Positions 20,394 through 56,170 of a DNA stretch of 64,000 bases are shown here, piece by piece. A program made the translations under genes and the position numbers. The notes under the pieces were generated by a model, which made no database searches, was not told the origin of the DNA, and was given only the letters and a program-made list of their open reading frames with translations. The stretch's first letter is position 1, and each line of letters opens with the position of its first letter. Source of the DNA: a virus (taxonomy: Duplodnaviria > Heunggongvirae > Uroviricota > Caudoviricetes); the IMG/VR virus record IMGVR_UViG_3300028914_000001, positions 221,489 to 285,488 of that record. One strand, given 5' to 3'.

Positions 20394-22217
20394 TTAGCTT
20401 TTGTTGCCTTTCTTCTGTCTGAATCGGAGAACAGCAACTTGTGCATTCATCTGAGCCTTTTCGTATGCGGTTTGCTCATTGTTTCCTTTCTTTATATATT
20501 CTGCCATAGCTTTCTTTTCGGCATCGTCATAAACCTTCTTCTCGTCTGGGGGAAGATTCATGTAAGATATTTTTCCTGACATGTACTGGGTCGAGCCTTG
20601 GGGTTGCTTCGGGTTCTGCTGTTGCTGTTGAACTTGCGGTTGTGCCTGCGGCTTCTGAGGTGTTGTTTGGTTTACAGGTTGTTCCGTACCTTTCTGCTGT
20701 GTTGGATTTGCTTTGTTTTGCTGGGCCACTTGTTGTGGCTGTGCGGCATTTTGAGTTTGATTATTGTTTCCCATGTTGTCAATCACCTTGTTGAGTGCGG
20801 CCTGACCTTCTTTGGCCCATTCGCCTTTTTGCATCTTGGCGAGAGCCTCCCTTGCTGCTTGGTCAGCCTTTTCAACTATCATGCTTTTGGGTGTCTTTTT
20901 ATCGACAGAGTATATTGTGATGTAATTCTGTTTGGTCTGGTCGAAGAACTTCTTTTCAGCGGCGTTTCGTGGTCCGTTGGTTGTATATGCAGTCTGTTGT
21001 CCACCCTTCTGTACATTAGTTCCTGTATTTACTTCCTTCTGTTTCTGTTGCATTGCGGCAATCTGATTTTGAGTTCCTTGCGGGTTCTGCCTCTGGAAAA
21101 CTGGGGCGATACCGTACTGCTTCCAGTTATTGTATTCTTGCTGGGAGATTATGTTGTTTTTAAGGAATTTCTGAGCCTGTGCTTCGTTAAACTTCTTGGA
21201 AGTTACATTTTGTGCCTGTTGCTGCGGCTGTGCTTGCTGTGGCTGTGCTCCTTGCTGTTGAGCTGGCTGTGCATTTGCGGGAACCTGAAGGTTACCGCTG
21301 AATACAGATGCTACCTGCATATTAGCCTTCTGCAATGCGGCGAGCGTCTGCTTTCCGATGAGGCCATCCTGAGATACACCTAGCTGAGCCTGTGCTGCTT
21401 GCACTTTTTTCTTTGCTTCGTTAAGGAGTAGGTTGAATGCTTCCTTGGTGTCATTGTCCATCTTGCCTGTTGCATTGATGTTTTCTGTTGCCTGAATTGC
21501 CTTGATTGTGTTAGGACCGAGTACGCCATCAGTAGCAAGTTTCAGGTTTGGATTCCTTGAATTTAGGAAATACTGCACGGTTGCGACATCTGCACCTTTC
21601 CTGAGCTGAGGTTGCTGTTGCTGCTGAGGTTGCTGTTGCTGAGGAGCCTGCGGTTGAGCTTGCTGTTGTGGTTGCTGTTGCGGTTGAGCTTGCTGTTGTC
21701 CGTTTGCCGCAGGTCCTGATGTGCGGACTTGGCTCGGTTCCCTTGTCATGCCCTTCGGAACTTGCGTCTGAGCTTGCTGTGCTGCTGGTTGTGCGGCAGG
21801 AGCACCTTGCTGCGGAAAGATATTATAGGACGACGGGTTGTTGAAATCCATTGCCTGCGGTTGATTACGCTGACGTGCCGGGTCTACAGATACTTGTTGC
21901 TGAACTTGCTGTTGTCCGTTTGCCGCAGGTCCTGATGTGCGGACTTGGCTTGGTGCCCTTGTTGTGCCCTTTGAAACTTGCGGCTGTCGGGTCTGCTGTT
22001 TTGCAGGTTGTGCAGCAGGTGCAGCGTTTTGTGGAAAGACATTATAAGACGACGGGTTGTTAAAATCCATCGCCTGCGGTTGATTCCGCTGACGAGCTGG
22101 GTCTTTTTCATCGCCTTCCGCTTCTAGGCATATATTGTTAATGTTCTTGATAGCGGTTTTCATCTCCGCTGGAATGTGCAGCGTATCAATAGACGCTTCA
22201 AAAAGAGATTTTAACAT
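20394..22217 (-). CDS. Gln-rich late protein with shared leader and peptidoglycan-binding (PG_binding_1-like) repeats
   Basis: 'LRKGADVATVQYFL...DGVLGPNTIKAIQ' and 'DGLIGKQTLAAL'; leader ends ICLE|A. Confidence 0.85.
   Translation of the reverse strand: MLKSLFEASIDTLHIPAEMKTAIKNINNICLEAEGDEKDPARQRNQPQAMDFNNPSSYNVFPQNAAPAAQPAKQQTRQPQVSKGTTRAPSQVRTSGPAANGQQQVQQQVSVDPARQRNQPQAMDFNNPSSYNIFPQQGAPAAQPAAQQAQTQVPKGMTREPSQVRTSGPAANGQQQAQPQQQPQQQAQPQAPQQQQPQQQQQPQLRKGADVATVQYFLNSRNPNLKLATDGVLGPNTIKAIQATENINATGKMDNDTKEAFNLLLNEAKKKVQAAQAQLGVSQDGLIGKQTLAALQKANMQVASVFSGNLQVPANAQPAQQQGAQPQQAQPQQQAQNVTSKKFNEAQAQKFLKNNIISQQEYNNWKQYGIAPVFQRQNPQGTQNQIAAMQQKQKEVNTGTNVQKGGQQTAYTTNGPRNAAEKKFFDQTKQNYITIYSVDKKTPKSMIVEKADQAAREALAKMQKGEWAKEGQAALNKVIDNMGNNNQTQNAAQPQQVAQQNKANPTQQKGTEQPVNQTTPQKPQAQPQVQQQQQNPKQPQGSTQYMSGKISYMNLPPDEKKVYDDAEKKAMAEYIKKGNNEQTAYEKAQMNAQVAVLRFRQKKGNKS
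21691..22100 (-). repeat. Intragenic tandem duplication (~220-bp unit)
   Basis: DPARQRNQPQAMDFNNPSSYN and PSQVRTSGPAANGQQQ each occur twice with near-identical DNA. Confidence 0.9.
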
Positions 22218-22245
22218 ACAGATACCCTATATTGTATTCTGACTC

Positions 22246-22254
22246 TAGTTTATA
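22246..22254 (-). promoter_or_regulatory. Late promoter motif TATAAACTA
   Basis: Exact copy upstream of 22217. Confidence 0.85.
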
Positions 22255-22260
22255 GCGTCA

Positions 22261-23889
22261 CTAACCTGCTTCAACAGTGTTGATGGCTATCATGGTGTCG
22301 CTGAAATTAGTCTTTACTCCGAACATTCCTTTGTCACCTTTGTCGTACAGGGCGAAGTAGAAGGAATATATAGTTTCCTTGTTCGGGTGAATAAGGTCGG
22401 ATACAAAGGTTTTGTACTTGCTTGATGTATGGTAAGTAAAGTATAGGCGGCCATTCATCATTCCCCAGTCAAACCATACTTCACCCTCGGGTATTACCGT
22501 ACCGTCAGGCAGCGTAGTTTCGTCATTGCTGAGGTACTGGAATATGGTATCACCTGGGGTATCCTCGACAAACTGTATCGTCGCCTTGAACGTATATGAC
22601 GACTCGATGTCGCCGTTTGCGTTGTCGCCAAACCAGTTGAGAATCTTGCTCCAATCGACGTCATCCTCCACCGCATACCCGCCTTCGACTTCCTGACCAT
22701 TTCCGGGAGCGATGTTCGGAATGAACTTTCGTGTATCGTCGTTGACGGCAACGAAGTCACGCCCGAATCCGCTAAGGTCGCTCTCGTGAGAATTATCGTA
22801 GTCGAAGTTGAAGCGGAGAAGGTCGAACGACGGGACTTCCGAAGGTTTCGTGATGTCCTCCGTCACCGATTCGCAATAGGTGTAAACGGGAATGCCGTTG
22901 GCATCAAAATCTTTTGGAAGAATCTTGTAGTCGGTATTGGGGTCATCATACGGAAGACCTTCCGTATCCTTGTTGTATTCGCCGATATCACAGCGTTTCA
23001 AACCTTCGTGGTAAGTCGTTGTTGTGAAACGGTCGAACAGGAGCAACTGTTTTAGCGATACATCCTCGTAATACTTGCTGCCGTCCGCATCCTGTTTCTG
23101 CATAAGAGTCGTCGACAGCGTGTGTAGAATAGAGTATCCTTCCCTGATGGTCGGGCACACTGTTTCCCACAGCTTTTTCTTCTGCTGTATGATTTCGCTC
23201 GGGTAGACGAGTAGCTGTTCCTTGTGGATTAGGTCCTCGTCGATATTGAAGTTCATCTCGGCGTACTTAATCATCTCTGGGGTCTCGTACGGCCTGTGGT
23301 AAACACCGTAGCAGTCAATAGGATAACTCACCTTGAAAATCTGTTGCTGTGCGTCTGAGTCAGTAACATCTTCGTTCAACTCTGTCGTGTTGCTGCTGAT
23401 GACTACTTGAACAGGCCTAGGAATTTCCGGGGCGAAGTCCCACTCCTTAATGACTATTGTCCTGTATTCATTGAAGTACGGCTCGATGTTCTCCTTTATC
23501 TGGAAGATATCGGAGATGTTGTCAGCCTGAAATTGCAATTCAAAGTGGAATACATACGGGGTCGGCTGGATGTCACGAATCCATCGGTCGGCTGACCTAC
23601 AGAAAATCTCCCTCGCATAGGTAGGCTGCGGTCTGTTGGTCGAGTCTGGGCTGTTGCTCACGAACCTGATTGACCCTATTGGATAGGGAACGGTTAGCTG
23701 CTTATACTGCGTGCTGGACCAGAAGTTGGTAAAATTGGCATTGTTGTGGGTGATGATGGGAATTTTTGCACTTCTTGAGTATGTAGTACGATACATGTCG
23801 TCGTATTTGTTGACATACATGTTATTGAACATGTCTATCAGTCCAATAAGGATTTTCTCAATAGTTCGTACGTAGTAAAATGGTCTCAT
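22261..23889 (-). CDS. Tail terminator/sheath stabiliser (T4 gp15-like) with C-terminal extension
   Basis: N-terminal 'FYYVRTIEKILIGLIDMFNNMYV...KIPI', 'PTPYVFHFEL', 'QIKENIEPYF'. Confidence 0.8.
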   Translation of the reverse strand: MRPFYYVRTIEKILIGLIDMFNNMYVNKYDDMYRTTYSRSAKIPIITHNNANFTNFWSSTQYKQLTVPYPIGSIRFVSNSPDSTNRPQPTYAREIFCRSADRWIRDIQPTPYVFHFELQFQADNISDIFQIKENIEPYFNEYRTIVIKEWDFAPEIPRPVQVVISSNTTELNEDVTDSDAQQQIFKVSYPIDCYGVYHRPYETPEMIKYAEMNFNIDEDLIHKEQLLVYPSEIIQQKKKLWETVCPTIREGYSILHTLSTTLMQKQDADGSKYYEDVSLKQLLLFDRFTTTTYHEGLKRCDIGEYNKDTEGLPYDDPNTDYKILPKDFDANGIPVYTYCESVTEDITKPSEVPSFDLLRFNFDYDNSHESDLSGFGRDFVAVNDDTRKFIPNIAPGNGQEVEGGYAVEDDVDWSKILNWFGDNANGDIESSYTFKATIQFVEDTPGDTIFQYLSNDETTLPDGTVIPEGEVWFDWGMMNGRLYFTYHTSSKYKTFVSDLIHPNKETIYSFYFALYDKGDKGMFGVKTNFSDTMIAINTVEAG

Positions 23890-23911
23890 AAGGCATCACC
23901 TAATCAATGAA

Positions 23912-23954
23912 TAGTTTATAATGTCTGGATGCCGAAGCCTGAAATTATAAACTA
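23912..23954. promoter_or_regulatory. Divergent pair of late promoter motifs
   Basis: TAGTTTATA (23912-23920) and TATAAACTA (23946-23954). Confidence 0.85.
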
Positions 23955-23978
23955 TGATTGATTACTTATGGATGAGTC

Positions 23979-25205
23979 ATGACCCCAGAAGAACAGTTCA
24001 GACAGGTAGTATCCACACTCAATATACCGAAAGTGCAACTAGAAGCGATTTGCGACCTACACTCCGCAGTCTACGAGGCTATGGATTTGAAAGGAATCTA
24101 TGACAAGTTGTCCCATCTGGACAATTACCCGAAGATTAGCAAGGCGATTAAGCTTGGTGGGGCTGCATTGATTGGAGGATGCCCGGTAGGTGGCGTGTGT
24201 AACACTGACTGGAACAAGGTGGCTGAGGGATTTGGCGGTGCCGACAAGCCCGTAGAGCAGTGTATAGACCAGCCGGAGAGTGCATACGACGAACAGGATA
24301 CGGTTTTCGACTATAAGGGCAACCCAGGTGTTGTCGATACCAATTTCACCGTAAAGACGGAGCCTAAGGCGGAAGAAACGCCTAAGGCGGAAGAAACGCC
24401 TGAGCCGAAAGAAACGCCTGAGCCTAACGAGGAAGTGAAGGAGGATGAGGATGATGACCTTGTCAGGGATACATTCTTGGTGAAGTTCCCGACACCATCT
24501 TCATCCGAATCGAGCGACGATGCTCTAAGGAAGTTCATGATGACGAATCTCTCCAGTGTATTCAAGGAAACCCATACACCTCAACAACAGGCTGCCCATA
24601 TCGAGCGCATCCTTCGTGCGGTCAAGAATGTGGCCAAGATTACGTCAAGTCGTGGAATCGGCGAAGCCGAGTTGCTCGCCATCATGTGTGTCGAGAGCAT
24701 GTACAACGACAAGCCGAAGACAACGAAATACAGGGGACTCGCCCAGCTGGGTGACGATGCAATGGACGATGCAAGGAAATATGCAAGAAGGTTCGGTCTG
24801 GATGCGTCAAAGATGCGTGACCCCGAGATTGTAGAGGATGCAGTGAACCTTGCCGCTGGCTACCTGTTGTACCTCATGTACCGTACCGACCGCAGCAACA
24901 AGGTGAAGCCTGACGGGAATGACGACAAGGAGATTGGTAACATGACCTACGCCATTGCCTGTTATAACGGAGGCATAGGCACGACCAAGTCAAAGTACCA
25001 TAACAATAAGGAACTTAGTGTTCCTATGCTTTACCGAATGGTTGAACGTAAAGAACTGACCCCCAACCAGGCAGTGAAAGTGAGGGGTTCGATGAAGGAG
25101 GCGTTAAGCTATCCGAAAAAGGTATTCAAGGTGCTTGATTACTTTAAGAGTATCGGATTGCCAACGCACTTTGGTTCGGGAAATGTATATTATCGAAAGA
25201 GGTAA
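23979..25205 (+). CDS. Lytic transglycosylase (SLT-like) with shared N-terminal leader
   Basis: 'LLAIMCVES', 'GLAQL', 'AAGYL', 'ACYNGG'; PKAEET linker repeats. Confidence 0.85.
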   Translation: MTPEEQFRQVVSTLNIPKVQLEAICDLHSAVYEAMDLKGIYDKLSHLDNYPKISKAIKLGGAALIGGCPVGGVCNTDWNKVAEGFGGADKPVEQCIDQPESAYDEQDTVFDYKGNPGVVDTNFTVKTEPKAEETPKAEETPEPKETPEPNEEVKEDEDDDLVRDTFLVKFPTPSSSESSDDALRKFMMTNLSSVFKETHTPQQQAAHIERILRAVKNVAKITSSRGIGEAELLAIMCVESMYNDKPKTTKYRGLAQLGDDAMDDARKYARRFGLDASKMRDPEIVEDAVNLAAGYLLYLMYRTDRSNKVKPDGNDDKEIGNMTYAIACYNGGIGTTKSKYHNNKELSVPMLYRMVERKELTPNQAVKVRGSMKEALSYPKKVFKVLDYFKSIGLPTHFGSGNVYYRKR

Positions 25206-25208
25206 TAC

Positions 25209-25541
25209 TTGAATTATTCTGCTATCTATTACAGTATAATCAGACAGGCGAATAAACGGGAATGCGTTATCGGTGAACTATGCGAGAATCACCATATAAT
25301 ACCGCTCTCCTGTGATGGTAGCAACAAGAAAAGCAATCAAGTAGAATTAAAACTCAAAGAGCATCATATTTGCCATCTTCTCCTTTTACGCATGGGGTTG
25401 TGTAAAACATATTATTTTTCCAGACTTAGCTCAAAACAATATATTTTTATGAAGACTCTGGAAAAACAAAAGTATGAGCGAAGTAAACACAAACAGAAAA
25501 CCCGAAGACGTTACAAGGCTCGCCAAGTATCTCTTGTTTAA
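25209..25541 (+). CDS. Short HNH endonuclease-like ORF, possibly a vestigial homing endonuclease
   Basis: 'ENHHIIPLSCDGSN..SN.V.L..KEHHICHLLL'; AT-rich; TTG start. Confidence 0.7.
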   Translation: MNYSAIYYSIIRQANKRECVIGELCENHHIIPLSCDGSNKKSNQVELKLKEHHICHLLLLRMGLCKTYYFSRLSSKQYIFMKTLEKQKYERSKHKQKTRRRYKARQVSLV

Positions 25542-26733
25542 GTATGCCCCAATCACGCATGCAGTTCTCGGATTCGCCGAGTTCGTATTTGACGACGTGA
25601 ATACGGTGGCCAGTTGCATAGAAACGGGAAAGCTCTATGTCAAGATGAACAAGGAATTCGTGGCTACGCTGGAACCCCAGGAACTTGCCCTTATTTTCTA
25701 TATCGAGTCGGTCCGAATCGGCCTCGGCCATGTTAGTACTCGTCTGTACAGTAACAAGAAGATATCCCTGATGGCTTCCGACCTGATTGCACTCAGAATG
25801 GGGTTGTGCTCGGACATTGGCGTGAACAATACGGCTTACGGCAAGGTCTTATCTAAGGTTTCTTTACTGGAAACCAATGTAAATAATCTGTATTACAGCA
25901 AGTATTACAAGGAATACGATTACCGAAAGGTAAGCATCGAAATCCTCTACAAGTTACTTACCGAGGGTAAAAACGGCGGTAAGAACAATGATGGCGACCA
26001 GAAGGATGATTCCAGCGAAAAGGATAATTCCGGGGGAATGTCTACCTATTTGAATGATGAAACTAGGGCTGACGAATGGAATGCCGAGGCCAACATTACG
26101 GAGGCTGTCGAGAGTGCTGCGGTCAACGGTGGCGGCAGTTGGGGAACGGCAGATGCCAATGGGGTAATCAGCATGCTCTCGAAGGCTACGAAAGTAGTCG
26201 ATGGCCGTACCATAATCAGGAAATTTGTGTCAGACGCTGTTGAATGTGGATGGCGTGAATGTCGATTCAAAAGAAACAGGCGGTTTGACCTGATGTATCC
26301 GGGACATATTCCTGAATACAAGGCGAAACTTCTGGTGGCAGGGGATGTTAGCCGTTCGATGCCGACAAGTGCCGTTTCTAGGATAATTTCACTTATTCTG
26401 GCCGTAGGCAAGGATGTCGATATCGACTATTGCTGGTGGAATACAAAATGTACCACTCCGGCCCACTTGACCCCGATGATGAGAAAAAAGAAGGAATTTG
26501 CCATATCGACTGGTGGTGGAACGGACTGCAACTGTGTTTTCCGCATGTTGGATACTTGCCGTACACGGTATGACGGAATAGTCATCGTGAGCGACATGGA
26601 TTTCTATCCCGAGCTCAAACTGGCTAAAAGGTACAGGGTTAGGAAGATACTGTGGGTGAAGACCAATCCCGACAAGGACCCTCCCGAAAAATACGCCAAA
26701 AAAGTGGTTGACTTGAACGAGTTGGAACATTAA
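25474..26733 (+). CDS. DUF2201-like metallopeptidase-VWA protein (MoxR partner)
   Basis: NRRF motif, MIDAS DVSRSM, GGGTD, IVSD; the HExxH position reads IESVR. Confidence 0.82.
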   Translation: MSEVNTNRKPEDVTRLAKYLLFKYAPITHAVLGFAEFVFDDVNTVASCIETGKLYVKMNKEFVATLEPQELALIFYIESVRIGLGHVSTRLYSNKKISLMASDLIALRMGLCSDIGVNNTAYGKVLSKVSLLETNVNNLYYSKYYKEYDYRKVSIEILYKLLTEGKNGGKNNDGDQKDDSSEKDNSGGMSTYLNDETRADEWNAEANITEAVESAAVNGGGSWGTADANGVISMLSKATKVVDGRTIIRKFVSDAVECGWRECRFKRNRRFDLMYPGHIPEYKAKLLVAGDVSRSMPTSAVSRIISLILAVGKDVDIDYCWWNTKCTTPAHLTPMMRKKKEFAISTGGGTDCNCVFRMLDTCRTRYDGIVIVSDMDFYPELKLAKRYRVRKILWVKTNPDKDPPEKYAKKVVDLNELEH

Positions 26734-26763
26734 CCGTCGAATCTGCTTTTTTGGCATGATTAT

Positions 26764-26897
26764 GAACTACCCATCCACATAAGATGGGTGGGTTTCCCCG
26801 AGTCCATCAGTGGCATTACAGAAATGGTTGATTTTTTGTCAAGGTGGCTTTCATCTCGGCCACTAAATATGACTGAGGGTTTTCGTCGCCACATTAT
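26764..26897. mobile_element. Non-autonomous IS200/IS605-like mini-element (two end hairpins, no ORF)
   Basis: Left hairpin GAACTACCCATC-CACATAA-GATGGGTGGGTTTC; right end TTCATCTCGGCCA-CTAAATA-TGACTGAGGGTTTTC; TTAT at both junctions. Confidence 0.6.
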
Positions 26898-26903
26898 AAA
26901 CTA
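26895..26903 (+). promoter_or_regulatory. Late promoter motif TATAAACTA
   Basis: 29 nt upstream of 26932. Confidence 0.85.
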
Positions 26904-26931
26904 TTTTTGATTGAATTTAATCGGCTAGACT

Positions 26932-29900
26932 ATGTCATTTGAAAGAATTGTAAAAGAAGTTGACGTATTGACCTATAATGCGAGGAGTGTTCTTAACGCC
27001 TTGATTAGGTCGGTACTCCGATATGGGACATCAAACGGATATACCGTCGTAAAAAGCGGGGTCGAACTCAAACTTACCAGGAATGACATCTACCTCCTTT
27101 ACAGACTGTACAATGAATGGGCTGGCCTTGGCTTTGAAAAGGATACATTCGAGGCTGCTTGTGACAATGTTCGTGAAAAGTTCATGCCTGTGGCAAACGT
27201 GAACCCGCTTCTGGTAGCCGATGCGGACGATGACGAACTTCTCCATGCGGTTGTTACTCATTCTAAAATTCTGTATCTGAATTCCAGTAACAAGAAAAAC
27301 GATAACCAATACTGGATTGAACAGATTATAAATGCGGCTGACAAGACGGTCATATTAAATTCATCCCCTATTCCAGTCAACCTGAGAACCCCTGTATTCG
27401 ACGAGAACATGGAAGTGGACAAGTATTCCCAGTATGAGACCTACTTGCTCCCGATGGGCTACTACATGTCTCTTATCCTTGGTTCTGCTGGTGATGAAAC
27501 TGACCATGTAGGTGGCGGAAGAAACTGGTGGTTCGATGTCGATAACGAGTTCAAGGTCAGCTCCCCGGCAGTAGTGCTTGGCGGAGATAATGGAACTGAC
27601 CGATTCACTCACCGTGTCGCAAAAGACGAAAGCGGTAATCTGTCTAGTTACAGCCTTGCATACGGGTATAACACGAAACTCATTGGTGATTACGATACCG
27701 TTGGCGGTGTTTCAACTTTCGTATTCGGCTCCAGTTCACATGGTATATCCAGTGCTTCTATGCTGCAAGCGAATTATGCTGGCATCTATGCAGGATTCAG
27801 CAACCAAGTGCATGCAGATAACGGAATGACCGCAGGCGGTGAGGACCTTACTGTCCTAGGAACTCACGGATTTGCCGCAAACCGTTCCAACACGGTTGGC
27901 TATCCTGGACATCTGTTCAAGGTTCCTGACCTTAAAAAGATTGACGAAAACTGCGAAGTCGTGGTAAATGTATGTGAAGGGGAGACTTCAAAGACTCTTA
28001 CCAAGTATAATCCGACCAACGTTCTTGATATTTATGTTAACCAGAATGAGTTAACACCAGTATCATGGTCGAAATTCAAGGTTGGCGACAAAGTCATTAT
28101 CTATGACCAAACAATCAATGACAAGAACTATATGTATTGGTTCGGTGTTGAATTGCGCCATCAGATAACGACAATTACGGGTATTGACACGGCGAATATT
28201 GCTTTTACTAGGCTTATTCTTAAAGATAATATCAAGTATAGTGAAATCGGTGTCGATGGTGGCCGTGTGGCAAAGTATAGTTCTGCCCAACACGCTAGCT
28301 TTGGTACACACTCCACTGCATTGAACTACTTGACGATAGCGGCTGGGGTCGACCAGACTGTCGTCGGCACAGCAAACTATCCTGTGGTAAACCCGAATTT
28401 CATTGTTGGAACAGGTTACATTCCCGAAGGCGACGAGATACAGAGCCAGTATATAGGTATTGGTGCATTCGGTACTGATGCCGATGGATACATTCATAGC
28501 AAGGTCTATCGTAGAAACGCTTTCATGGTTGCCCGTGACTATATCCATGGAGCGACCAGCGACTATATCATGATTGGCATGGTCAATGACCAGAATCAAA
28601 CGGATATTCGCCACTGGGTAGCTACTACGGATGACCAGGACCATAGGGAATTGTACCTTGAAGTTGCAGACGGGTCCGAGGAAGTCGCATGGAACGACCC
28701 TAACGATGACGACATTGACCCGGATGACTATCAGCAGTATCACACCAGCCATATAGGCCTATCCAATACTAGGATGGTGCTCGGTAGGTTCACTGACCGT
28801 TCAAATGATGGAGACAAGAGCTGTCTCGCTGCAATCAATTTCTATGACAAGCGTTGGTTTGCTGAACATGACGACGTGAACCAACACAACATGCCTAGAA
28901 ATACGGCGCTCGAACTAATTGGCGAAAATGCAATTCGTGAACTGAAGACGAATTTCAATATTACAAACGGATTCGTCAAGCCAGACGGTTATATCTGCCA
29001 GTCCAGATATGCACCAGACAAGAGTTATGCCGTATGGAGGGATAACCCTATTGCCAACATGTTGTATGCGGAAAACGAATACATCGCAATAAGCAGTGCG
29101 AATACGCTGTCCATGTATTCATCAAATCTAGTCCTTCTTGCGTCCAAGAGCAGAATCGCTATAGAAGGGCCTAGGTTTGAAATCAGTCCGGCTACGAGTA
29201 CAATAGGAACCCTTGCATTGACGGGTGATGGTAAAAGCCATTGCCACGACTGGATTTGTGGTTGTGGAAAGGTGAATGACGTTCAGCAGCCGGACTTTGC
29301 CCGTGTTATGTACGCTGGCTTCCTGATTGCTACGTTTGGAGATGTTTTGTATGGATATTCGAAGAATATCTTGCCGACCCGAGACCTCGTATGCTGGGGG
29401 CTCGAAGAATTTGCGTTGGGTTCAGCGTCTGCACATATATTCTCGTCGGTAGGCGGAAACAATGGCGATATTGAGAATTACAAGACGGAGTGTCAGAATG
29501 AATCCGTAAAACTCATCTTGCCTGGTCCGAGTAATACTGAGCATATTCATCCTGTATTGATGCGATACAAGGAAGAGACGACAAACCCGGCGGGTATCGT
29601 AAGCCCAGAAATAATGAAAGTGGACAAGCTTGCCCTCATGGACGATGTCGTTACCAGGCGTACAATTCAAGGGGCATTGCATATCACAGGTGACAACACT
29701 CCATCTGCTTATAGGTGGGTGAAGGTGGCTAATGTGACAGTCCCTGCGCCAGTTGGCGGTGTGCAGAACTTTGCCGCTGGTTCGTTCATTATCATGGCAT
29801 CTGGCAGCAAGGGATGCGCTAAGCGTGAAATCCATTTCAATATTGCCGGAGTTGGCGGAGGTAGCAGTACGGCGACGGTAAGGGGGTACTCGATAGACAG

Positions 29901-32566: not shown

Positions 32567-33163
32567 TTAAAACATATGGTCTAGGTCAAAATCCTCTTCA
32601 CCCTCTGGCACGGGTTCCTCTGCAGGAGGTTCTTCGCTCGGTGGAGTAGGGTTTTCCGCAGGCTGTTCTGTCTGCTGGTCAGTAGTTTGGTCAGTCGGTG
32701 TGTCCGTTTGAGGTTCATCAGCAAACAGGTTATCCAGGTTAAAGTCTTCTTGCTCTTCCACCATAGGTTCAGCAGGAGTTTCTTCGGTTGGTTGTGGCGG
32801 CACTGAATTGTCTGCCGGGGGAGGGACCTGACCGAACAGGTCGGCTTGTTGAGCCGGGTCTGGTTCGACGGTTTCGACATTGTCGTCCTTATGGTCGAAT
32901 ATCTCGTCGCCTTCCTTCTTGTTGTTGTTTACACCAACCATGGAATGTACCTTGTCCATGAGGTCGTTCACACCCTTTGTGTTGGTCTGCGTGATTTCAG
33001 TCTTTTCGACCGGGGTTTCAGCGGCTTCGTTGTCCGTCTGGCCCATTTGCGGAGCCAAGTTTGATTCCATTAGACATTTGCGGTATATCTTTGATACGGA
33101 CTCGTACAATGCGGGTTCATGGGTTCTTAGATATCGAAGTTGTTGACTGAATGTTGCTGGCAT
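32567..33163 (-). CDS. Acidic, Pro-rich late protein with leader-like N-terminus (...RKCLME|S)
   Basis: Second gene of a late operon; low-complexity body with two EDF.LD..F motifs. Confidence 0.75.
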   Translation of the reverse strand: MPATFSQQLRYLRTHEPALYESVSKIYRKCLMESNLAPQMGQTDNEAAETPVEKTEITQTNTKGVNDLMDKVHSMVGVNNNKKEGDEIFDHKDDNVETVEPDPAQQADLFGQVPPPADNSVPPQPTEETPAEPMVEEQEDFNLDNLFADEPQTDTPTDQTTDQQTEQPAENPTPPSEEPPAEEPVPEGEEDFDLDHMF

Positions 33164-45909: not shown

Positions 45910-45912
45910 TGT

Positions 45913-47816: not shown

Positions 47817-47827
47817 GGTAAACCGTT

Positions 47828-49138: not shown

Positions 49139-49151
49139 AAATGTATTTTAA
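49138..49151 (+). promoter_or_regulatory. AAAATGTATTTTAA motif (candidate middle promoter)
   Basis: Exact copy upstream of 49178. Confidence 0.6.
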
Positions 49152-49177
49152 TCATTGTAAAGTAGCTGTATGTACCT

Positions 49178-49630
49178 ATGGGTAAGCTCTGTTGTGATGG
49201 AAAATTCAATGTTGGCCTTTATAAGCCGTTGTCCCAGCAGTTGGTAGACTTCGGTAACGAGTGTTTTGCCAAGTTTGTTGACCATGCCACGCTCATGTGG
49301 ATGTTCATATTCTATGATGGGGCGAACGACTGTCCGAAGTGCAGGTCTTCATTGTCTGAAATTCACGACTGGTTCTACAAGAAAGGATTGCTTGATAGTT
49401 CCAACTACATGGTCAAGATAGTGGTTGAGCCGGAACCTGAAAAATGCAAGATTTACACAAACTTGGGATTTACCCTGAAACCAATGCACATATTCTGCGA
49501 ACCAAACGGAAACATCTTCGACATATACACAGGTCTGCCGGATAGCAAGTGGCTGGACAAGCATATCTACCCGTACATACAGAAAAACATCGGCATGAAG
49601 AAGGTACTCTCGGCGATTAAGGAGCAATGA
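49178..49630 (+). CDS. Thioredoxin-fold protein
   Basis: 'FIFY....CPKC' and a cis-Pro-like 'KPMHIF...G'. Confidence 0.7.
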   Translation: MGKLCCDGKFNVGLYKPLSQQLVDFGNECFAKFVDHATLMWMFIFYDGANDCPKCRSSLSEIHDWFYKKGLLDSSNYMVKIVVEPEPEKCKIYTNLGFTLKPMHIFCEPNGNIFDIYTGLPDSKWLDKHIYPYIQKNIGMKKVLSAIKEQ

Positions 49631-50685
49631 TGACGGACATTAACGAACATAGCATAAAAAGGATAGTGGTCGGCTATACTCTCGACTCAGTTATCGAGGC
49701 TCATAACCAGGCACAGAACGTAGAAAACAGTGTCGTGTTTTATAGCACTGGCGTACTGGGCGAACCACTCGACAAGTACAACGATTTCATCTCGTATGAC
49801 GACGCCAAGCGCCTCAGCGTGATTCTCCCCGACCTTGAATTTGATGAGTTCGCTGGATGCGACTACCTCTATATACCGTATGAAAAGTTGAAGTTCAAGA
49901 ATAGCCGTAACGGCCTTATGTCGCTTCCGTTTAACAAGCTCAGTTTCGACGATAACGATGAATGGAAGGCTGTCTGTGACGGATACTTTAACGAACATGT
50001 GCAGGAAATCTTAAAGGATATGTCCAACTCTCCTACCCGCCTCATAACCATGTTCAAGCAGTATCTTCCTAAATGGTTTGTAGACTGTATTGTCCGTAAT
50101 GTCAGTGCAACTAGATGGGCCGGAATTCCGACAAGTAATATAACCCTGAACGGCTACCTTTATGAGTTCAACCTGAATCAGATTGACTCAGATGGCATTC
50201 AGTTGTGGTACAAGCCGAGAATCAGTTACAACGAGGTTTGCAAGCGAATACTGAAAAAGGATAAGATTCCAGTATACACTGCTACAAAGGAAGATTGTAC
50301 CCGGTTCCTTACCGACCGTTCTATCGAGTATGTGACTTTCATGGATAACCGAGTTGACCATTATCTTGGTTATCGTAGCGGTATCTTTGACCGATGTGTT
50401 ATGTCCGCAGTGCCATGCGAGTTGCCGTCGATATTCCACAACGATTTCGACACGGGTATTATCCGTACCCCGACCATGGCTCACTGGGGTATATGCAAAT
50501 ACGGAAACGATGTACGTAAACTTTATTCAAAAAAGTGGAATTCCATCTTGGAAGTTCCTACTTCCGATATTCCGATGACAAAGAATAACCTGCGCATGTA
50601 TGATGCGTATTCTAAACTTCTTCCTCTGTTTGGAAACTTTAAGACATTGAATTTGCAGCAGAAGATAACTACCCTGATTAAGTAA
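49627..50685 (+). CDS. UDP-galactopyranose mutase (Glf)-like protein, probably degenerate
   Basis: 'SLPFN', 'RWAG', 'RVDHYLGYRSG', 'NNLRMYDAYSKL' occur in Glf order; the FAD motif GxGxxG is replaced by VVGYTLDS. Confidence 0.65.
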   Translation: MMTDINEHSIKRIVVGYTLDSVIEAHNQAQNVENSVVFYSTGVLGEPLDKYNDFISYDDAKRLSVILPDLEFDEFAGCDYLYIPYEKLKFKNSRNGLMSLPFNKLSFDDNDEWKAVCDGYFNEHVQEILKDMSNSPTRLITMFKQYLPKWFVDCIVRNVSATRWAGIPTSNITLNGYLYEFNLNQIDSDGIQLWYKPRISYNEVCKRILKKDKIPVYTATKEDCTRFLTDRSIEYVTFMDNRVDHYLGYRSGIFDRCVMSAVPCELPSIFHNDFDTGIIRTPTMAHWGICKYGNDVRKLYSKKWNSILEVPTSDIPMTKNNLRMYDAYSKLLPLFGNFKTLNLQQKITTLIK

Positions 50686-50686
50686 A

Positions 50687-51724
50687 TTATTTCTTTTCCA
50701 TCGAAGGAGCCGGGACGAATCCTCTGCGTTTTTCAAACCTTTCGTTGAACTCCTTTTCGTCCCTAGCATTGAGCGACTCGTAACTGTAACGAGTTCCGTT
50801 CATGTTGCTCTTAGTCCTTTCCCAGAACCTCAGGTTGTAGTCCAGTGTAGTTTCACTTGACCCGACAACCGCCTGAGTCACTGTGGTATTGTCGTGCAAT
50901 CCACGCTCGCTCTTCTTAAATGTTCCGTTGAGTGGGTTGGGAATATTGAAATCCACGGTGAACGTGGCGAAGTCCATATTGCCGTTATTCGGGTCTATGG
51001 TAGGGGCGGCGGTCAACACGGCGGAGTTGTACTCGCTCATCTGGATTACATCCAAGTTTGTCCTCGTGCCGGGGGCGTATGTCAACCACGGGGCTACCAT
51101 ATTCAATGCATCTTTGTTCTTGTCAGCGGCCCAGTCATCGGCAGTTGCCCCGTTCAGGAGTTCCACAGAGATGTCGATTTTATGGAACCCAGACTTGGGG
51201 CGTAGGACAAGCGGGGAAATTTGCGAGTTGAACATTGCATTGAAGAAATTGAACCACATCAGGTAGTGGTTGTCAACAACAGTCAGGCTCAGTCGTCCCG
51301 GCTGAACCTTCTTAGGCATCTGAAAAGTAAGCGCCTTCATTGAATCCAAAGAGTCGATTTCCTCTGTGCTCAACGTAGGTTTTGGCAACGTAACCGACTT
51401 GCAGTTCCATAGCATATTGAGAATGCGCTTTTCGTTATCCCAGTGGTCTTCGATGAAGTTGCTGAACTTTTGGAGCATATACGCCGAACCATTGAACCTC
51501 TTCGGCGCATGAGTATACTTGTCCCCAGCACAGTTCACCTGCATGATGGTCAGAGCCTTTTCCACATACTCGCCACTAAACCCGACATGAAACTTGTTCG
51601 GGACAAAGCCTTCCGCATGATTGAAATACTTCTGAAGGTAGCTGTCCGATGGACGCTCCGTATCGTGCATCACGGGGATTACTTCGGTTATTCTATTGTA
51701 TGGTGTAGACGGTGTGCTGGCCAT
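50687..51724 (-). CDS. Tail-tube-fold baseplate protein (gp54-like)
   Basis: 'GFVPNKFHV', 'CKSVTLP', 'LSLTVVD', 'FTVDF'. Confidence 0.6.
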   Translation of the reverse strand: MASTPSTPYNRITEVIPVMHDTERPSDSYLQKYFNHAEGFVPNKFHVGFSGEYVEKALTIMQVNCAGDKYTHAPKRFNGSAYMLQKFSNFIEDHWDNEKRILNMLWNCKSVTLPKPTLSTEEIDSLDSMKALTFQMPKKVQPGRLSLTVVDNHYLMWFNFFNAMFNSQISPLVLRPKSGFHKIDISVELLNGATADDWAADKNKDALNMVAPWLTYAPGTRTNLDVIQMSEYNSAVLTAAPTIDPNNGNMDFATFTVDFNIPNPLNGTFKKSERGLHDNTTVTQAVVGSSETTLDYNLRFWERTKSNMNGTRYSYESLNARDEKEFNERFEKRRGFVPAPSMEKK

Positions 51725-51732
51725 AGGTACTC

Positions 51733-52458
51733 CTAGTATGAGTTACTGGTTTCTCCACCAGTAATTACACATATCGCAGACATAAACGAGTTTGGGTCTG
51801 GAAGGCGGATTATCCTCTTTATTTGGTAATTGAACGACATTGTGAACTTCACAGCAGCTATGCTGCCCGGAGTTACCTGCAACGCACTGATGCTTGTCGG
51901 GAAACAGCGGTAGTAACGGACAATCATGTGATGTTGGGCCCTGTCGTCACCGAAATGGAAATCGATGTGCGGGATGTACATCAGCCTGTTCCTGTACCTG
52001 TGGTCGTACCCGTAGACCCTGTGATTGTGGTCTAGTATAGGGAACGCATCCGTCTGTCCGCTCTGGATTGTTTCCATATAGCGGTGAAGTGCCCAGTAGT
52101 TCTCGTAGTAGTCATCACAATACATACTTATCGAAATCGACTCGTCGTATTCGTTGTCCTCCGTGGTTGGAATGTAAACGCTGAACTTGTAATGGTTTTC
52201 CTTGGCATATTTCAGAGAAAGGCCAGGAGCCGTAAAATTGTCGATGTTTGCGTTTACAGTCTCTGGCGGAGGCGCAGTATGCGCCTTTGTAACGTCATCT
52301 ACGTGATGTTTTCCGTCATAGTCTGGGTCGTAAGATACGGGAAGGTCGCCTATCCGACACCTGATAAAACCCTGGTGAACGGGCACCGGGTTTCGTACAA
52401 GGTTACGATGCAACTCCCTGACAGTTCGGGGAGTTAGTATAGGCTTCTTTTCCGTCAT
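51733..52458 (-). CDS. Tail tube terminator (gp3-like)
   Basis: 'FTAPGLSL', 'DDYYENY', 'CFPTSISAL', 'FTMSFNY'. Confidence 0.68.
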   Translation of the reverse strand: MTEKKPILTPRTVRELHRNLVRNPVPVHQGFIRCRIGDLPVSYDPDYDGKHHVDDVTKAHTAPPPETVNANIDNFTAPGLSLKYAKENHYKFSVYIPTTEDNEYDESISISMYCDDYYENYWALHRYMETIQSGQTDAFPILDHNHRVYGYDHRYRNRLMYIPHIDFHFGDDRAQHHMIVRYYRCFPTSISALQVTPGSIAAVKFTMSFNYQIKRIIRLPDPNSFMSAICVITGGETSNSY

Positions 52459-52461
52459 ATC

Positions 52462-53220
52462 TTACTTCTTCACCTGGACAGAGCCGACGAGGTTGGTCTT
52501 GGAGGTCTTCGGCGGTTCCTTCTTGTATTCAGGCTTGCCGAGTTCCACGAGCTTTTCCGTCTTCTTGCCGTCCATGTCCTTCTGGGCATACTTTGCGAAA
52601 GCCTTCGGGTTCGGATTCTTCATCGGCTTGTCACTCGTTACAACACCGAAGTCGTCACGTCCGCCGACCTTGAGAGTCGGGTTCTTCTGAGGCTTCACGA
52701 TGCCGACATTGTTCGGTAGATTGTGAGACCTGATTGCAGAGATGAGCGTCTTCATGTCGCTGATGGAGATTGCCTCACCAGCCTTGATTGGCTTGATGGT
52801 GCCGACGAGAGACTTGCCCTTGACAGTCGGAGCTCCCTTTACGGTGTAGGTCGTGTCAACTGTCGCATTGACTGGCTTGAACTTCGGAGTACCAGAAGAT
52901 GCTTCGAGCTGTGCCGTCTTCTTGACTTCGGGTTCCTTCTGTGCTTCGCTCGTAGTTTCCTTATGACCCTTGATGCGTTCAGCCTTCCATTCCTTGATGG
53001 TCTTGAGAGGCTTTACACAGCCAACCTTGTCATTCTGCATTACAAGGCCTTTCTTGGACGGCTTACGCATGGAATCGGTATCTGCCGTGGAAACGGAGGC
53101 AGCGTTCCAGAACGGGAACACCTCGTTCGCATCGAGCGTTTTAACTGGCTTCTTGGTCTCCAAGTGAGCCTTCACTTGGCCAAGAAGTTGTTTCTCAGTA
53201 GGGAGGTCAAACATATCCAT
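52462..53220 (-). CDS. Lys-rich basic late protein
   Basis: Late promoter upstream; recurring VGx(V/I)KP motifs. Confidence 0.75.
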   Translation of the reverse strand: MDMFDLPTEKQLLGQVKAHLETKKPVKTLDANEVFPFWNAASVSTADTDSMRKPSKKGLVMQNDKVGCVKPLKTIKEWKAERIKGHKETTSEAQKEPEVKKTAQLEASSGTPKFKPVNATVDTTYTVKGAPTVKGKSLVGTIKPIKAGEAISISDMKTLISAIRSHNLPNNVGIVKPQKNPTLKVGGRDDFGVVTSDKPMKNPNPKAFAKYAQKDMDGKKTEKLVELGKPEYKKEPPKTSKTNLVGSVQVKK

Positions 53221-53261
53221 AATTCATTCCTATATGGCAAAAGCCAACATTGTTATGCAAA

Positions 53262-53330
53262 TAGTTTATAAGATTGGCGGAATGAATTATCTGTGAATAT
53301 TGCATTTAAACCCCAAGACATTATAAACTA
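53262..53330. promoter_or_regulatory. Divergent pair of late promoter motifs
   Basis: TAGTTTATA (53262-53270) and TATAAACTA (53322-53330). Confidence 0.85.
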
Positions 53331-53352
53331 TTTCTGAAATAGCTGGTGCAAC

Positions 53353-54471
53353 GTGATGAAAAATATCTTCATAGAGTCTGTAAACAGCGTCATCGGATTG
53401 AGTGATGGCCAAAAGGGTGCAGTCGTGTCCTTGTATCGTACCTTGTTTGAGGATGGCGCTGGGTACAAGCCTGCGAATAAAGAAGAGGATAAGAAAGAAG
53501 ATAAGAAGGACGACAAGAAAGACGATAAGAAAGACGATAAGAAAGGCGGTGATAAAACGGATGATGCTCCAGCCGAATGGAAACGAAATCGCACACCGAC
53601 TAATATGACCCCGGTCAAGAAGCGTGATGTTAAATACATAGCGTTGCACTACACGGCTGGCAATTCGTCTTCGTCTGGCTCTGCGTGTAGAACGAAATTC
53701 CCTGCCAACTGTTCAGCCGACTTCATCATTGATGATAGCGAAGTATACCAGTACAATCCTGACTTGGACCACTACTTTACATGGGCTATCGGTGTAAGCG
53801 ACCCTCAGATTAAAGACAACTATGTAGCTGAGGCGAAAGCAAGGGGAATGAATGATGCGGCAAGTCTGTATGGAACTGCCAAGAATGCAAATACCATCTC
53901 AATCGAAATGTGCAGTAACTATAATGGCGAACGTCCTAAAAATGCATCACCGCTAGACCCTAACTTTTACTTGACCGAAGCTACCTTGGGGAATACGGCA
54001 AAGGTCGTTGCGTATTTGTTGAGTAAATATCCTGGCGCAAAGGTAATACGCCATTATGATGTCACTGGAAAACCTTGCCCCGGCCCGTGGTGCAGAGACG
54101 AGAAAGGAACGCAGCAATATCTTTCGTTTGTGCAACGCTGCAATGCTACGCCTGCTCCGAAAAGTGTTGAATATCAAGATGTCGAAGATTCATCGTTTGA
54201 CAAGTCGCAGCCCTCTTGGCCAGATTTCGGTCGTCTGTTTGCTCCAGATAAAACGAAAACGACGGCAGGCGATGCGGCCAACGCTACTACGGAAAATACA
54301 CTGAACGCCGTTATTAACTCAGTTAAAACCCCTGCCGCCAAGGTGCTTGCCGGGGTTATCTCGAAGATTAACCCTAATGCTTCCCCTAATGTTGTCGCCG
54401 AATTTGCCAACATGGTTGCTAGTAAGCCGGAGTTGTTGAAAAATGTACTCAAACTTGTATCAAATAAATAA
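53353..54471 (+). CDS. N-acetylmuramoyl-L-alanine amidase (Amidase_2) with shared leader and KKDD linker
   Basis: 'YIALHYTAG', 'SADFIID', 'ISIEMC', 'IRHYDVTGKPCPG'. Confidence 0.92.
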   Translation: MMKNIFIESVNSVIGLSDGQKGAVVSLYRTLFEDGAGYKPANKEEDKKEDKKDDKKDDKKDDKKGGDKTDDAPAEWKRNRTPTNMTPVKKRDVKYIALHYTAGNSSSSGSACRTKFPANCSADFIIDDSEVYQYNPDLDHYFTWAIGVSDPQIKDNYVAEAKARGMNDAASLYGTAKNANTISIEMCSNYNGERPKNASPLDPNFYLTEATLGNTAKVVAYLLSKYPGAKVIRHYDVTGKPCPGPWCRDEKGTQQYLSFVQRCNATPAPKSVEYQDVEDSSFDKSQPSWPDFGRLFAPDKTKTTAGDAANATTENTLNAVINSVKTPAAKVLAGVISKINPNASPNVVAEFANMVASKPELLKNVLKLVSNK

Positions 54472-56170
54472 TAAGTATGCTTTGATGGAAGCTTCGTTGA
54501 AGAGTATTTATGGAATTGATGCCGATACGGTCAATGCTATCATCACATTGCATCAGACGGTATATAAGCCTCAGTTTGAAAGTGTAGGCTCGGTAGCTCG
54601 AATATCCCTTGCCGCTGTACTTACTGGAACCGCCCTTTATTCGGGTGCTGCCGGAGTGATTGCCTCTGCCATCGCCGTCGTTAGCGCTATATCTGGCGGT
54701 ACTGCAATACCGTTCATTGGTGCTGCCGCTGCTGTTCTGTTTGCTGGATGGGCGGTGTACGATGCGGTCACTGATGTGTCCAAGGCAAATAAAGAAGCAA
54801 AGGAAATTATTCACGAAGGCAAAGCGATGGATGTGGCGGAAGCGGCTGTGAAAGAGCAGATGACGAGTAACCCATATGCAAAGTATGCGGTCGATGCGGC
54901 CAAGCGTACAGGACAAATTTTGAAGGAAACTGGCGGCAATCTGATGGATAAGCTTGATGCCGTTTCGAAGACGACAACTACCAAGAAAGCGGATTCAACC
55001 GATACGATAGATGATGACGAGTTTGCCAAAAAGTTTGGTTTCACGAAGGACCTCCAGATTGTCGATGAGGACAATGCACTTAACCATTCGATGCAATTCT
55101 TCTATTACATGAATGGTTTTAACGAGTATGGCAACAAGGTTATAGACAAAGAAGCTCATGATGAGTTCATGAAGCAGTTTGAGGAATATTGGGAAGAACA
55201 TAGTGATTTCCTTCCGTACTTGAACGAGAAGGAAGCAAGGTCCAAGATGTTTGTCGAGTTCGGTCGCAAGTATTACAAGGAAACCTTCATGCCGATGTTC
55301 AGGAAAAAACTTGCCGAAGCCAAGAAACTCAAAGACAAGGGAAAGAGCGTTGAGGAATTGGAAGCGGAAGGACGTAACGAGTTCGGGGATGTCGTTGATA
55401 ATGTAAAATACTACGCCACGATGGGATTCACCCCGGATGCAAAAATTACTGACATCAATAAATTCTCGAAGGCATTTACTGCAAAGACGGGTCTTGACCT
55501 GAGTTACAACCCGGTGTCACCTGAAGGTGAAGAACTGTTGGAACGAATGATGAAGGACAAGTCGGAAGAATATCTGAAATATCTTCCAGCACCAGTGTTC
55601 CTCATGGAAGAGAAAGACCAGAAACCGTTTATCGAGAAAGCCCGTGACCCGAAACGCCGTGGAGAATCGCAGGTTGGCCGTTACGGAAAGGATATGATAG
55701 CATCTAATGCCGCCGCAAACAAAGTTGCGACCGAGCAGAAGGCTGGTAATGGTGCAGTCGCTCGAAATGGTGCGGCGCAACCGCAACCGCAACAACAAAC
55801 GGATTCAAGTAACCAACAGCAGGATGATATCACTAATGCGCCTGATGTAGACAAGCAATCGGGCCCGTACCGTACTGTCGGAAAGGCTCAGTTGCTCAAA
55901 ATATACAACCTCTTGCCAGAGCGTTCAAAGCACCTGATGCGTCTTGGATACATAATGAATATCAATAACGGTAAGTTTTACCGAATGAGTGATGCTGATA
56001 GGCTGGTCATGCCGCAGATTGTTCATGAGGCTCGAAAGGAAGCTGAACGCCAATGGATTGAACAACGCAGACAGGTCAAGCTTAACCAGGGTCGGTTGAC
56101 CAGGGACGATATGACTAAGGAAGAAATTGAGGAATCGAACAGGAGGGCGGGATTCCCCTCGAATAGCTAA
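54443..56170 (+). CDS. Leader-bearing protein with a Gly/Ala-rich hydrophobic hairpin (candidate ejection/membrane protein)
   Basis: 'LMEASLKSIYGI...AIITLH...QFE|S' followed by a ~50-aa hydrophobic stretch; exact start uncertain. Confidence 0.72.
   Translation: MYSNLYQINNKYALMEASLKSIYGIDADTVNAIITLHQTVYKPQFESVGSVARISLAAVLTGTALYSGAAGVIASAIAVVSAISGGTAIPFIGAAAAVLFAGWAVYDAVTDVSKANKEAKEIIHEGKAMDVAEAAVKEQMTSNPYAKYAVDAAKRTGQILKETGGNLMDKLDAVSKTTTTKKADSTDTIDDDEFAKKFGFTKDLQIVDEDNALNHSMQFFYYMNGFNEYGNKVIDKEAHDEFMKQFEEYWEEHSDFLPYLNEKEARSKMFVEFGRKYYKETFMPMFRKKLAEAKKLKDKGKSVEELEAEGRNEFGDVVDNVKYYATMGFTPDAKITDINKFSKAFTAKTGLDLSYNPVSPEGEELLERMMKDKSEEYLKYLPAPVFLMEEKDQKPFIEKARDPKRRGESQVGRYGKDMIASNAAANKVATEQKAGNGAVARNGAAQPQPQQQTDSSNQQQDDITNAPDVDKQSGPYRTVGKAQLLKIYNLLPERSKHLMRLGYIMNINNGKFYRMSDADRLVMPQIVHEARKEAERQWIEQRRQVKLNQGRLTRDDMTKEEIEESNRRAGFPSNS

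Follow-up and report, generated by a model that had tools for sequence, protein, structure and literature searches.

Leader-tagged wall- and membrane-directed proteins as candidate head-packaged ejection cargo of an uncultured T4-like rumen megaphage

Four leader-tagged proteins directed at the cell envelope

The stretch of DNA analyzed here (the window, 64,000 nucleotides) corresponds to bases 221489-285488 of the IMG/VR virus record IMGVR_UViG_3300028914_000001, which represents an uncultured T4-like phage from the rumen. The record of 422,150 bp has direct terminal repeats, is rated complete, and has a GC content of 46.5%. Coordinates given below refer to the window unless marked as genome coordinates. 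Four genes of the window encode proteins that combine a common N-terminal leader with features directed at the cell wall or membrane: a protein with peptidoglycan-binding units (P0001), a lytic transglycosylase (P0002), an amidase (P0003), and a protein with a predicted membrane hairpin (P0004). A preliminary description of the same DNA had proposed these four open reading frames (ORFs) as leader-bearing, envelope-breaching proteins. Translation and Pfam searches agree with it on the extent of the ORFs, on the PG_binding_1, SLT, and Amidase_2 domains, and on the hydrophobic stretch of the fourth protein, and a hidden Markov model (HMM) of the leader recovers the leader on all four. In each case a hydrophobic residue and a Glu close the leader; the predicted cuts, marked by a slash, are ICLE32/A in P0001, VYE33/A in P0002, LFE33/D in P0003, and QFE46/S in P0004, and would yield mature proteins with computed masses of about 63, 42, 37, and 59 kDa, respectively.

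P0001 (20394..22217, minus strand; 607 aa) is basic and Gln-rich. Its leader occupies residues 1-32 (22122..22217, minus strand; leader HMM, E 1e-12), and two tandem PG_binding_1 units lie further downstream (21438-21596 and 21333-21413, span 21333..21596, minus strand), being the only Pfam matches to this family in the genome. The first unit (PF01471, residues 208-260, E 3e-7) scores 30.9 bits against a cut-off of 23; the second, adjacent copy is partial. The mature part contains 20.7% Gln and has an isoelectric point of 9.9. No PHROG match to P0001 was found. Orthologues from six related loci retain the leader and a PG_binding_1 or PG_binding_3 domain in 6/6 cases, five of them scoring above the curated cut-off for one of the two families and the sixth remaining below the threshold for both. 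In residues 37-185, which precede the PG_binding_1 units, a Gln/Pro-rich unit of 73 aa that starts with DPARQRNQPQAMDFNNPSSYN is repeated in tandem almost perfectly.

P0002 (23979..25205, plus strand; 408 aa) contains the only SLT domain of the genome (PF01464, residues 219-345, 24633..25013, plus strand; E 2e-8), which scores 34.1 bits against a cut-off of 21.3, and 36.8 bits in the genome scan. Outside this domain lie an acidic Pro/Glu linker and, at residues 56-74, a Gly/Ala-rich segment that is semi-hydrophobic and conserved. When P0002 was compared with 19 relatives, the motifs E239-S240, GLAQLG (253-258), and ACYNGG (327-332) proved to be invariant or nearly so, the strictly invariant residues being E239, S240, G253, A255-Q256-L257-G258, A327, C328, Y329, N330, and G332. 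We take these to be the catalytic Glu of the E-S motif, the GLxQ motif, and the AYNxG-type motif of SLT enzymes. The relatives also keep Y32-E33 at the predicted cut site. Relatives in IMG/VR escaped a scan with the single protein, and an alignment-based scan yielded 15 loci, 12 of which also hold a divergently transcribed neighbor encoding a leader-tagged protein of 498-726 aa. In the six IMG/VR loci examined closely, identity of the SLT gene is 46-60% and the neighbor is the P0001 orthologue with the PG_binding matches given above, the PG-binding and SLT genes remaining side by side.

P0003 (53353..54471, plus strand; 372 aa) has an Amidase_2 catalytic domain at residues 90-245 (PF01510, 53620..54087, plus strand; E 4e-15) with a score of 56.8 bits against a cut-off of 26. 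Residues H99, E185, H234, K240, and C242 are invariant in 22/22 aligned amidases, cellular ones included; by analogy with T7 lysozyme and AmpD, we assume that the two His and the Cys are zinc ligands and that Glu and Lys are catalytic. The domain is followed in the predicted architecture by no known wall-binding domain (Pfam), and no hydrophobic signal was detected in the protein; its other parts are a linker rich in Lys, Asp, and Glu, and a family-specific conserved C-terminal tail of about 110 aa. P0003 matches endolysin PHROGs. Nevertheless, judging by its predicted architecture, it does not fit a canonical endolysin, as it bears a leader and has neither a binding domain nor a secretion signal. 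Its full-length relatives, all of which have the leader, the charged linker, and the private C-terminal tail, and none of which has a recognized wall-binding domain, form some 30 clusters with identities of 48-58% and one further cluster with 94%. The next-best matches cover the catalytic domain only and belong to ordinary amidases with SH3, SPOR, CW_7, or PG_binding_1 modules. The low-complexity linker (window 53470-53560) differs in length among the relatives by indels of 3 and 12 nt, and read mapping over it picks up unrelated metagenomic contigs.

P0004 (54443..56170, plus strand; 575 aa) overlaps P0003 by 29 nt. A conserved MYS start places 14 residues before the leader, which occupies residues 15-46 (54485..54580, plus strand; leader HMM) and shows no variation at Y41, P43, or E46 among 24 relatives. 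The region between R53 and D107, about 55 aa long, is rich in Gly, Ala, and Ser and uncharged, with a Kyte-Doolittle maximum of 1.9 over 19 residues; thus, the Gly/Ala-rich hydrophobic segment reported earlier behind the predicted cleavage site is indeed present. This stretch fits a predicted two-helix hairpin (residues 54-106, 54602..54760, plus strand; no charged residue) that would begin seven residues after the predicted cut. Among the relatives, the sequence of the hairpin varies and its hydrophobic character is kept. In total 137 relatives were found, on contigs of up to 420 kb; their identities are 52-62%, apart from one of 95%.

The C-terminal region of P0004, about 400 aa, is strongly conserved among these relatives and has no known fold. 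Neither Pfam nor PHROG matches to P0004 were found, and a PDB profile search returned nothing. For its AlphaFold2 model, with a predicted local distance difference test score (pLDDT) of 60, neither PDB (Foldseek; VIA-wide Z<5) nor BFVD gave a significant match, and the neighbors in ESM Atlas score only up to 0.82. Within residues 190-575 (window 55010-56170), a unit about 20 aa long, G-F/Y-x-x-D-x-x-I/V-x-D, recurs and is modelled as a beta-hairpin plus a helix with a pLDDT of about 80; this unit, too, has no PDB or BFVD match.

The leader, the prohead protease, and a late-promoter-like motif

The leader HMM, built from copies in the window and iterated genome-wide over all ORFs, settles on 24 of them. 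Its matches are always N-terminal, with E-values from 1e-9 to 1e-18 in 23/24 cases and 4e-3 in the remaining one. The leader is about 33 aa long, has a consensus of roughly LFE-x-hydrophobic-x-x-L-g-L-x-x-x-Q-x-E-A-V-x-x-L-h-x-a-C-F-E, and closes with C/x-[FLMY]-E, the next residue being S, A, G, or D; the ORFs that carry it are otherwise unrelated. AlphaFold2 models the leader of P0004 as two helices, with low confidence. It is not hydrophobic, and hence is not a secretion or signal-anchor signal. P0001-P0004 are thus a subset of a 24-member leader-tagged set; the other members mostly have no known domain, with the exception of one NUDIX protein, one WG-repeat protein, and one protein with a weak PG_binding_3 match.

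Genome-wide Pfam scans for peptidoglycan-directed domains detected one SLT domain, PG_binding_1 in one ORF, and two Amidase_2 domains. The leader is present on three of these four ORFs, compared with 24 of all 589 ORFs (4%; Fisher p = 2.3e-4), and adding the tail spike (see below) as a fifth peptidoglycan ORF gives p = 5.7e-4. The link between the leader and wall-directed domains exceeds chance.

A gene for a prohead protease of the gp21/S77 type lies at genome 154046-154771 (PF03420, E 8e-14; phrog_207, E 2e-30), and the gene beside it, in the position of T4 gp67, gp68, and internal protein genes, bears the leader. Between this leader-tagged head-module gene and the protease gene there is a 59-aa ORF (genome 154785-154964, minus strand) with two M-E-S sites, in a position like that of the small cleaved T4 core proteins gp67 and gp68.

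The motif TATAAACTA occurs in 53 copies in the genome (two strands) compared with about 5 expected, and 48 of the 53 precede a correctly oriented ORF by 5-40 nt, often as back-to-back divergent pairs. The ORFs behind it include head-module genes beside the prohead protease, the gp15-like tail gene, and 12 leader genes. TATAAACTA looks like the phage's own version of the T4 late promoter, and TATAAACT may be read as a late-type promoter; the canonical T4 late promoter TATAAATA was considered as well, and none of the 24 leader genes is preceded by it. Copies of TATAAACTA are found 28 nt upstream of P0001 (22246..22254, minus strand), 24 nt upstream of P0002 (23946..23954, plus strand), and 22 nt upstream of P0003 (53322..53330, plus strand). 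There is no such motif before P0004, which, given the 29-nt overlap, is probably co-transcribed with P0003 as one operon. Two perfect contigs on this operon were found in one metatranscriptome; as they may result from DNA carry-over, they are a weak hint of its expression. Within the window, the motif starts at 9621, 17970, 20314, 22246, 23912, 23946, 26895, 33640, 33675, 44100, 44133, 53262, 53322, and 57855.

The four genes are surrounded by structural ones. A gene for a T4 gp15-like tail sheath stabilizer (22261..23889, minus strand; PF16724, E 3.5e-15) lies between P0001 and P0002 and marks this region as a structural module. The gene for a gp19-type tail tube protein (51733..52458, minus strand; phrog_45, E 2e-13) is upstream of the amidase operon, and that for a T4 gp17-like large terminase (56195..57859, plus strand; phrog_5989, E 2e-60) is directly downstream of P0004; the terminase is 33-35% identical to cyanophage gp17. 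PHROG scans of the structural neighbors gave almost nothing beyond the terminase, the tail tube protein, and the protease. Further leader-tagged cargo genes of the window are P0432 (18507..20297, minus strand), which neighbors P0001 and has a Gln/Pro-rich N-terminal part and no known domain, and two genes assigned by the leader HMM (9000..9665 and 32567..33163, both on the minus strand).

DNA of this genome was found again in bovine gut metagenomes from at least 12 studies. No relatives of P0002 or P0004 were found in GenBank phage records, and a megablast search of the window against GenBank phages gave no match. The Jug phages (PMC12880540) were considered as the possible clade and set aside: the lysin families given in that paper are different ones, and the rumen is unmentioned there.

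Probable role in wall digestion at entry and alternative roles

A search of the rest of the genome for a separate leaderless endolysin was successful: the gene L022 (genome 118568-119353, minus strand) encodes an Amidase_2 protein (E 1e-16) with an SH3-like C-terminal tail and matches to endolysin PHROGs (9e-30). By its architecture, it is a likelier lysis enzyme than the leader-tagged hydrolases. Its probable start, MYNVTV, abuts the stop of the preceding gene, which encodes a 193-aa leader protein ending in a Gly run. At a distance of 3.5 kb, two small minus-strand ORFs (genome 122883-123239 and 123345-123530), with three and one predicted membrane helices, respectively, are holin candidates; they match no family, and none of the small membrane ORFs near L022 could be named as a holin. 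Whole-genome Pfam searches gave no match to Phage_lysozyme (PF00959), GH25, M23, Amidase_3, NlpC/P60, or VanY.

The tail spike P0391 (locus L023, genome 172245-173465, minus strand; 406 aa), spotted by eye and then confirmed by fold search, combines a gp5/VgrG-like N-terminus with a C-terminus of the Amidase_2/peptidoglycan recognition protein (PGRP) fold. In its AlphaFold2 model (pLDDT 73.7), residues 1-147 match central spikes of contractile systems, of the VgrG/gpV/P1 type (Foldseek 5e-8 to 1e-6; for the baseplate spike of P1, VIA Z 10.4), and residues 240-406 match 3hmb_A, a Bacillus subtilis prophage endolysin (VIA Z 13.0, root-mean-square deviation 2.9 A over 136 residues), as well as T7 lysozyme, LytA, PGRPs, and AmpD (2y2b, Foldseek E 2e-4). 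The Gp5_OB Pfam model has no match in the genome, but it is silent on control genomes as well and is therefore uninformative. We found 40 relatives of P0391; of the 20 aligned, three match Phage_base_V and four match Amidase_2 (best E 3.8e-7). The positions corresponding to H99, E185, H234, and C242 of P0003 are occupied by G, V, A, and S, a mapping that rests on local motifs and the fold, as the profile alignment is of low probability, and the canonical zinc and catalytic set is intact in 0/20 relatives. With these residues replaced, the wall-recognizing fold is almost certainly unable to hydrolyze its substrate, and the modelled domain is probably a peptidoglycan-binding pseudo-enzyme. The earlier suggestion that this phage departs from the tail-spike lysozyme route usual for T4-like phages is thereby strengthened, as no T4-lysozyme domain was detected in the genome and the amidase fold of the spike is degenerate.

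As P0002 and P0003, with their intact catalytic residues, carry the leader and the spike amidase appears disabled, head cargo is the probable source of wall digestion at entry, as it is in T7. We assign a probability of about 0.58 to the interpretation that the four proteins are packaged in the head, cut by the protease, and ejected for breaching the wall and inserting into the membrane. Relatives with identities of 46-65%, on contigs of up to 420 kb, retain the leader, the cut site, the catalytic residues, and the hairpin. The following sequence of events could be proposed. The leader, as two helices, would dock each late-made cargo protein onto the assembling prohead core, and the gp21-type prohead protease would remove it after the hydrophobic-Glu pair (E32, E33, E33, and E46 in P0001-P0004). 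The mature proteins would stay in the filled head and exit via the tail at the start of infection, before or together with the DNA. P0002 and P0003 might then cut peptidoglycan locally outside the tip of the tube, with the basic, Gln-rich P0001 holding the complex on the wall, and the hairpin of P0004 might become buried in the cytoplasmic membrane, helping to open or anchor a DNA conduit. The cell lysis that closes the cycle would be left to the leaderless Amidase_2 protein with the SH3-like tail. The preliminary description spoke of insertion into the inner membrane, which presumes a diderm host; the membrane concerned may be the sole one. The nearest cellular relatives of the P0003 amidase domain are clostridial.

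Several points weigh against this interpretation. The head location, cleavage, and ejection of the leader proteins, as well as the membrane insertion of P0004, are deduced here from sequence alone; at that level, all checks of the earlier proposal of head-packaged ejection proteins rather than endolysins came out in the predicted direction. The hairpin of P0004 is predicted from hydropathy only, and the AlphaFold2 confidence in this region is below 50. The leader is three times as long as its T4 counterpart, and its cut motif has a hydrophobic residue at P2, the T4 cleavage rule being L or I at P3. T4 internal proteins are delivered to the cytoplasm, whereas a wall enzyme sent through a contractile tail would have to come free of the tube while still in the periplasm or wall zone, and to refold there. 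The gene before L022 and the two genes after it are all leader-tagged; L022 thus lies inside a leader-gene operon, and gene context alone cannot separate lysis from cargo. Finally, two further proteins may be wall enzymes. In P0433 (locus L047, genome 187842-190169, plus strand), a late protein of 775 aa, SLYRSPEKQ, NHTKD..CVDI, and CIHLE near the C-terminus look M15-like by eye; the protein has no Pfam, PHROG, or PDB match, and only low-rank ESM Atlas neighbors with VanY/M15_4. It may be a tail-borne M15-like peptidase, and if so, the tail is not enzyme-free. P0434 (locus L051, genome 30779-31318, plus strand; 179 aa), with an N-terminal membrane anchor and a signature typical of M15/LAS peptidases (HRTGRAVDI...LHFE; E 0.013 against PF13539, below the cut-off), may be a signal-anchored M15-like lysis enzyme, being a weaker candidate for this role than L022.

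Alternatively, the leader could be a tag for tail or baseplate assembly, or a chaperone-docking or zymogen propeptide, the four proteins being conventional tail-associated lysins. Virion-associated lysins are most often tail components (reviewed in PMC6116005), and the gene order would agree with such a role, as P0001 and P0002 flank the gp15-like tail gene and P0003 and P0004 adjoin the tail tube gene. However, the latter pair is also directly upstream of the large terminase gene, the leader is found on a gene inside the head module too, and its Glu-terminated site is of the type recognized by head-maturation proteases, one of which is encoded in the genome. Moreover, 24 unrelated proteins, including the NUDIX and WG-repeat ones, are hard to fit in a tail. 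On balance, we regard a tail role of the leader as unlikely.

A slightly less probable alternative retains the packaging in the head and assigns the proteins another function, either as an inner-body or DNA-condensing filler or as cargo delivered to the cytoplasm. T4 internal proteins do end up in the cytoplasm, and the T7 lysozyme amidase binds T7 RNA polymerase, which could serve as a model for a role of the cargo in binding a host or phage enzyme. P0001, very basic and Gln-rich, resembles DNA-associated internal proteins, and the heads of giant phages hold many cargo proteins of no assigned role (PMC5694885). However, the catalytic and zinc residues of P0002 and P0003 are invariant across the clade, which argues for selection on the hydrolysis of peptidoglycan, a substrate absent from the cytoplasm, and the disabled spike amidase leaves a need for hydrolase activity. 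The least probable alternative is that P0002 and P0003 are all or part of the lysis machinery, kept inactive or cytoplasmic by the leader until late in infection, with P0004 as a holin-like or membrane-disrupting partner: P0003 has its endolysin PHROG matches, the overlap of P0003 and P0004 resembles that of many endolysin-holin pairs, P0004 has two predicted membrane helices, and the search for holins elsewhere gave only small membrane ORFs, but the leader is shared with 20 proteins that have no link to lysis and, not being hydrophobic, is not a secretion or signal-anchor signal, L022 has the classic endolysin architecture while P0003 lacks a wall-binding domain, and P0004, with its 575 aa and conserved soluble region of about 400 aa, is unlike any holin.

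Contractile-tailed phages are thought to breach the wall by enzymes of the tail tip, and capsid-stored wall enzymes are a hallmark of short-tailed phages. If the four proteins are indeed head-packaged ejection cargo, a T4-like megaphage with head-tagged hydrolases and a disabled spike enzyme would blur this division. The leader would also be a marker, readable from sequence, for listing the ejected proteome of an uncultured phage clade of the cattle gut and rumen, and P0004 would be nominated as a new type of membrane-inserting ejection protein. On the practical side, the leader could be used as a long, well-defined packaging tag, and P0002 and P0003 as virion-derived lysins. A broader scenario for the whole clade of T4-like phages with genomes of about 340-420 kb is put forward tentatively and is open to serious doubt: wall cutting may have moved from the tail tip to the head, leaving the dead spike amidase as a peptidoglycan sensor or anchor, and an ejectosome of the T7 style, made up of the leader-tagged transglycosylase, amidase, and PG-binding protein with P0004 as a membrane-conduit subunit, may act through a contractile tail, in convergence with entry of the podovirus type.

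Comparison with known phage systems

The concept of the capsid-targeting sequence (CTS), the CTS cargo of T4, and the signal of P1 DarB are described in PMC9024508. As in T4 CTS cargo (IPI, IPII, IPIII, and Alt, processed by gp21), a portable N-terminal tag ending in Glu is found here on unrelated late proteins, a gp21-family protease is encoded in a T4-like head module, and the cargo would be expected to be ejected. Unlike the T4 CTS of 10 aa, the tag is about 33 aa long, with two predicted helices, and is present on 24 cargo genes. To our knowledge, no peptidoglycan hydrolases or membrane-hairpin proteins are known among T4 cargo, unlike the cargo described here. A second parallel with T4 concerns gp5: P0391 is likewise a central spike with an oligonucleotide/oligosaccharide-binding (OB) fold at the N-terminus and a peptidoglycan-directed domain. 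However, this domain has the Amidase_2/PGRP fold without zinc and catalytic residues, and is not a T4 lysozyme.

The very large heads of the giant phiKZ-like myoviruses phiKZ, 201phi2-1, and SPN3US contain many cargo proteins, ejection proteins included, the N-terminal propeptides of which are removed by a T4-related prohead protease (PMC5694885; PMC10052503). Wall hydrolases are unmentioned among the head proteins in these two papers, the former of which contains neither "transglycosylase" nor "murein". The phage studied here differs from the phiKZ-like phages in belonging to another clade and in having one recognizable leader family, the cleavage motif in phiKZ-like phages being S/A/G-X-E.

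In T7, gp14, gp15, and gp16 are stored in the capsid and ejected first, and membrane-inserting partners form a DNA conduit (PMC6116005; PMC8954989); gp16 is an ejected protein of the capsid core with peptidoglycan-degrading activity (PMC6116005). The cargo of the rumen phage resembles the T7 ejectosome in including an SLT-type enzyme, the SLT domain class being all that P0002 shares. The searches revealed no similarity in sequence or fold to gp14, gp15, or gp16; P0004 has no significant match of either kind, its best ejectosome entry being 8vb2_E with E 3.4. T7 is a podovirus, with a tail too short to span the envelope, whereas a contractile T4-like tail is present here; moreover, unlike in T7, the enzymes are separate proteins with predicted cleavable leaders, accompanied by an amidase and a PG_binding_1 protein. 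Taken together, CTS-type cargo joined with an ejected lysin of the T7 type, in a megaphage that has a contractile tail and a disabled enzyme on its spike, would be a new combination of known kinds of components.

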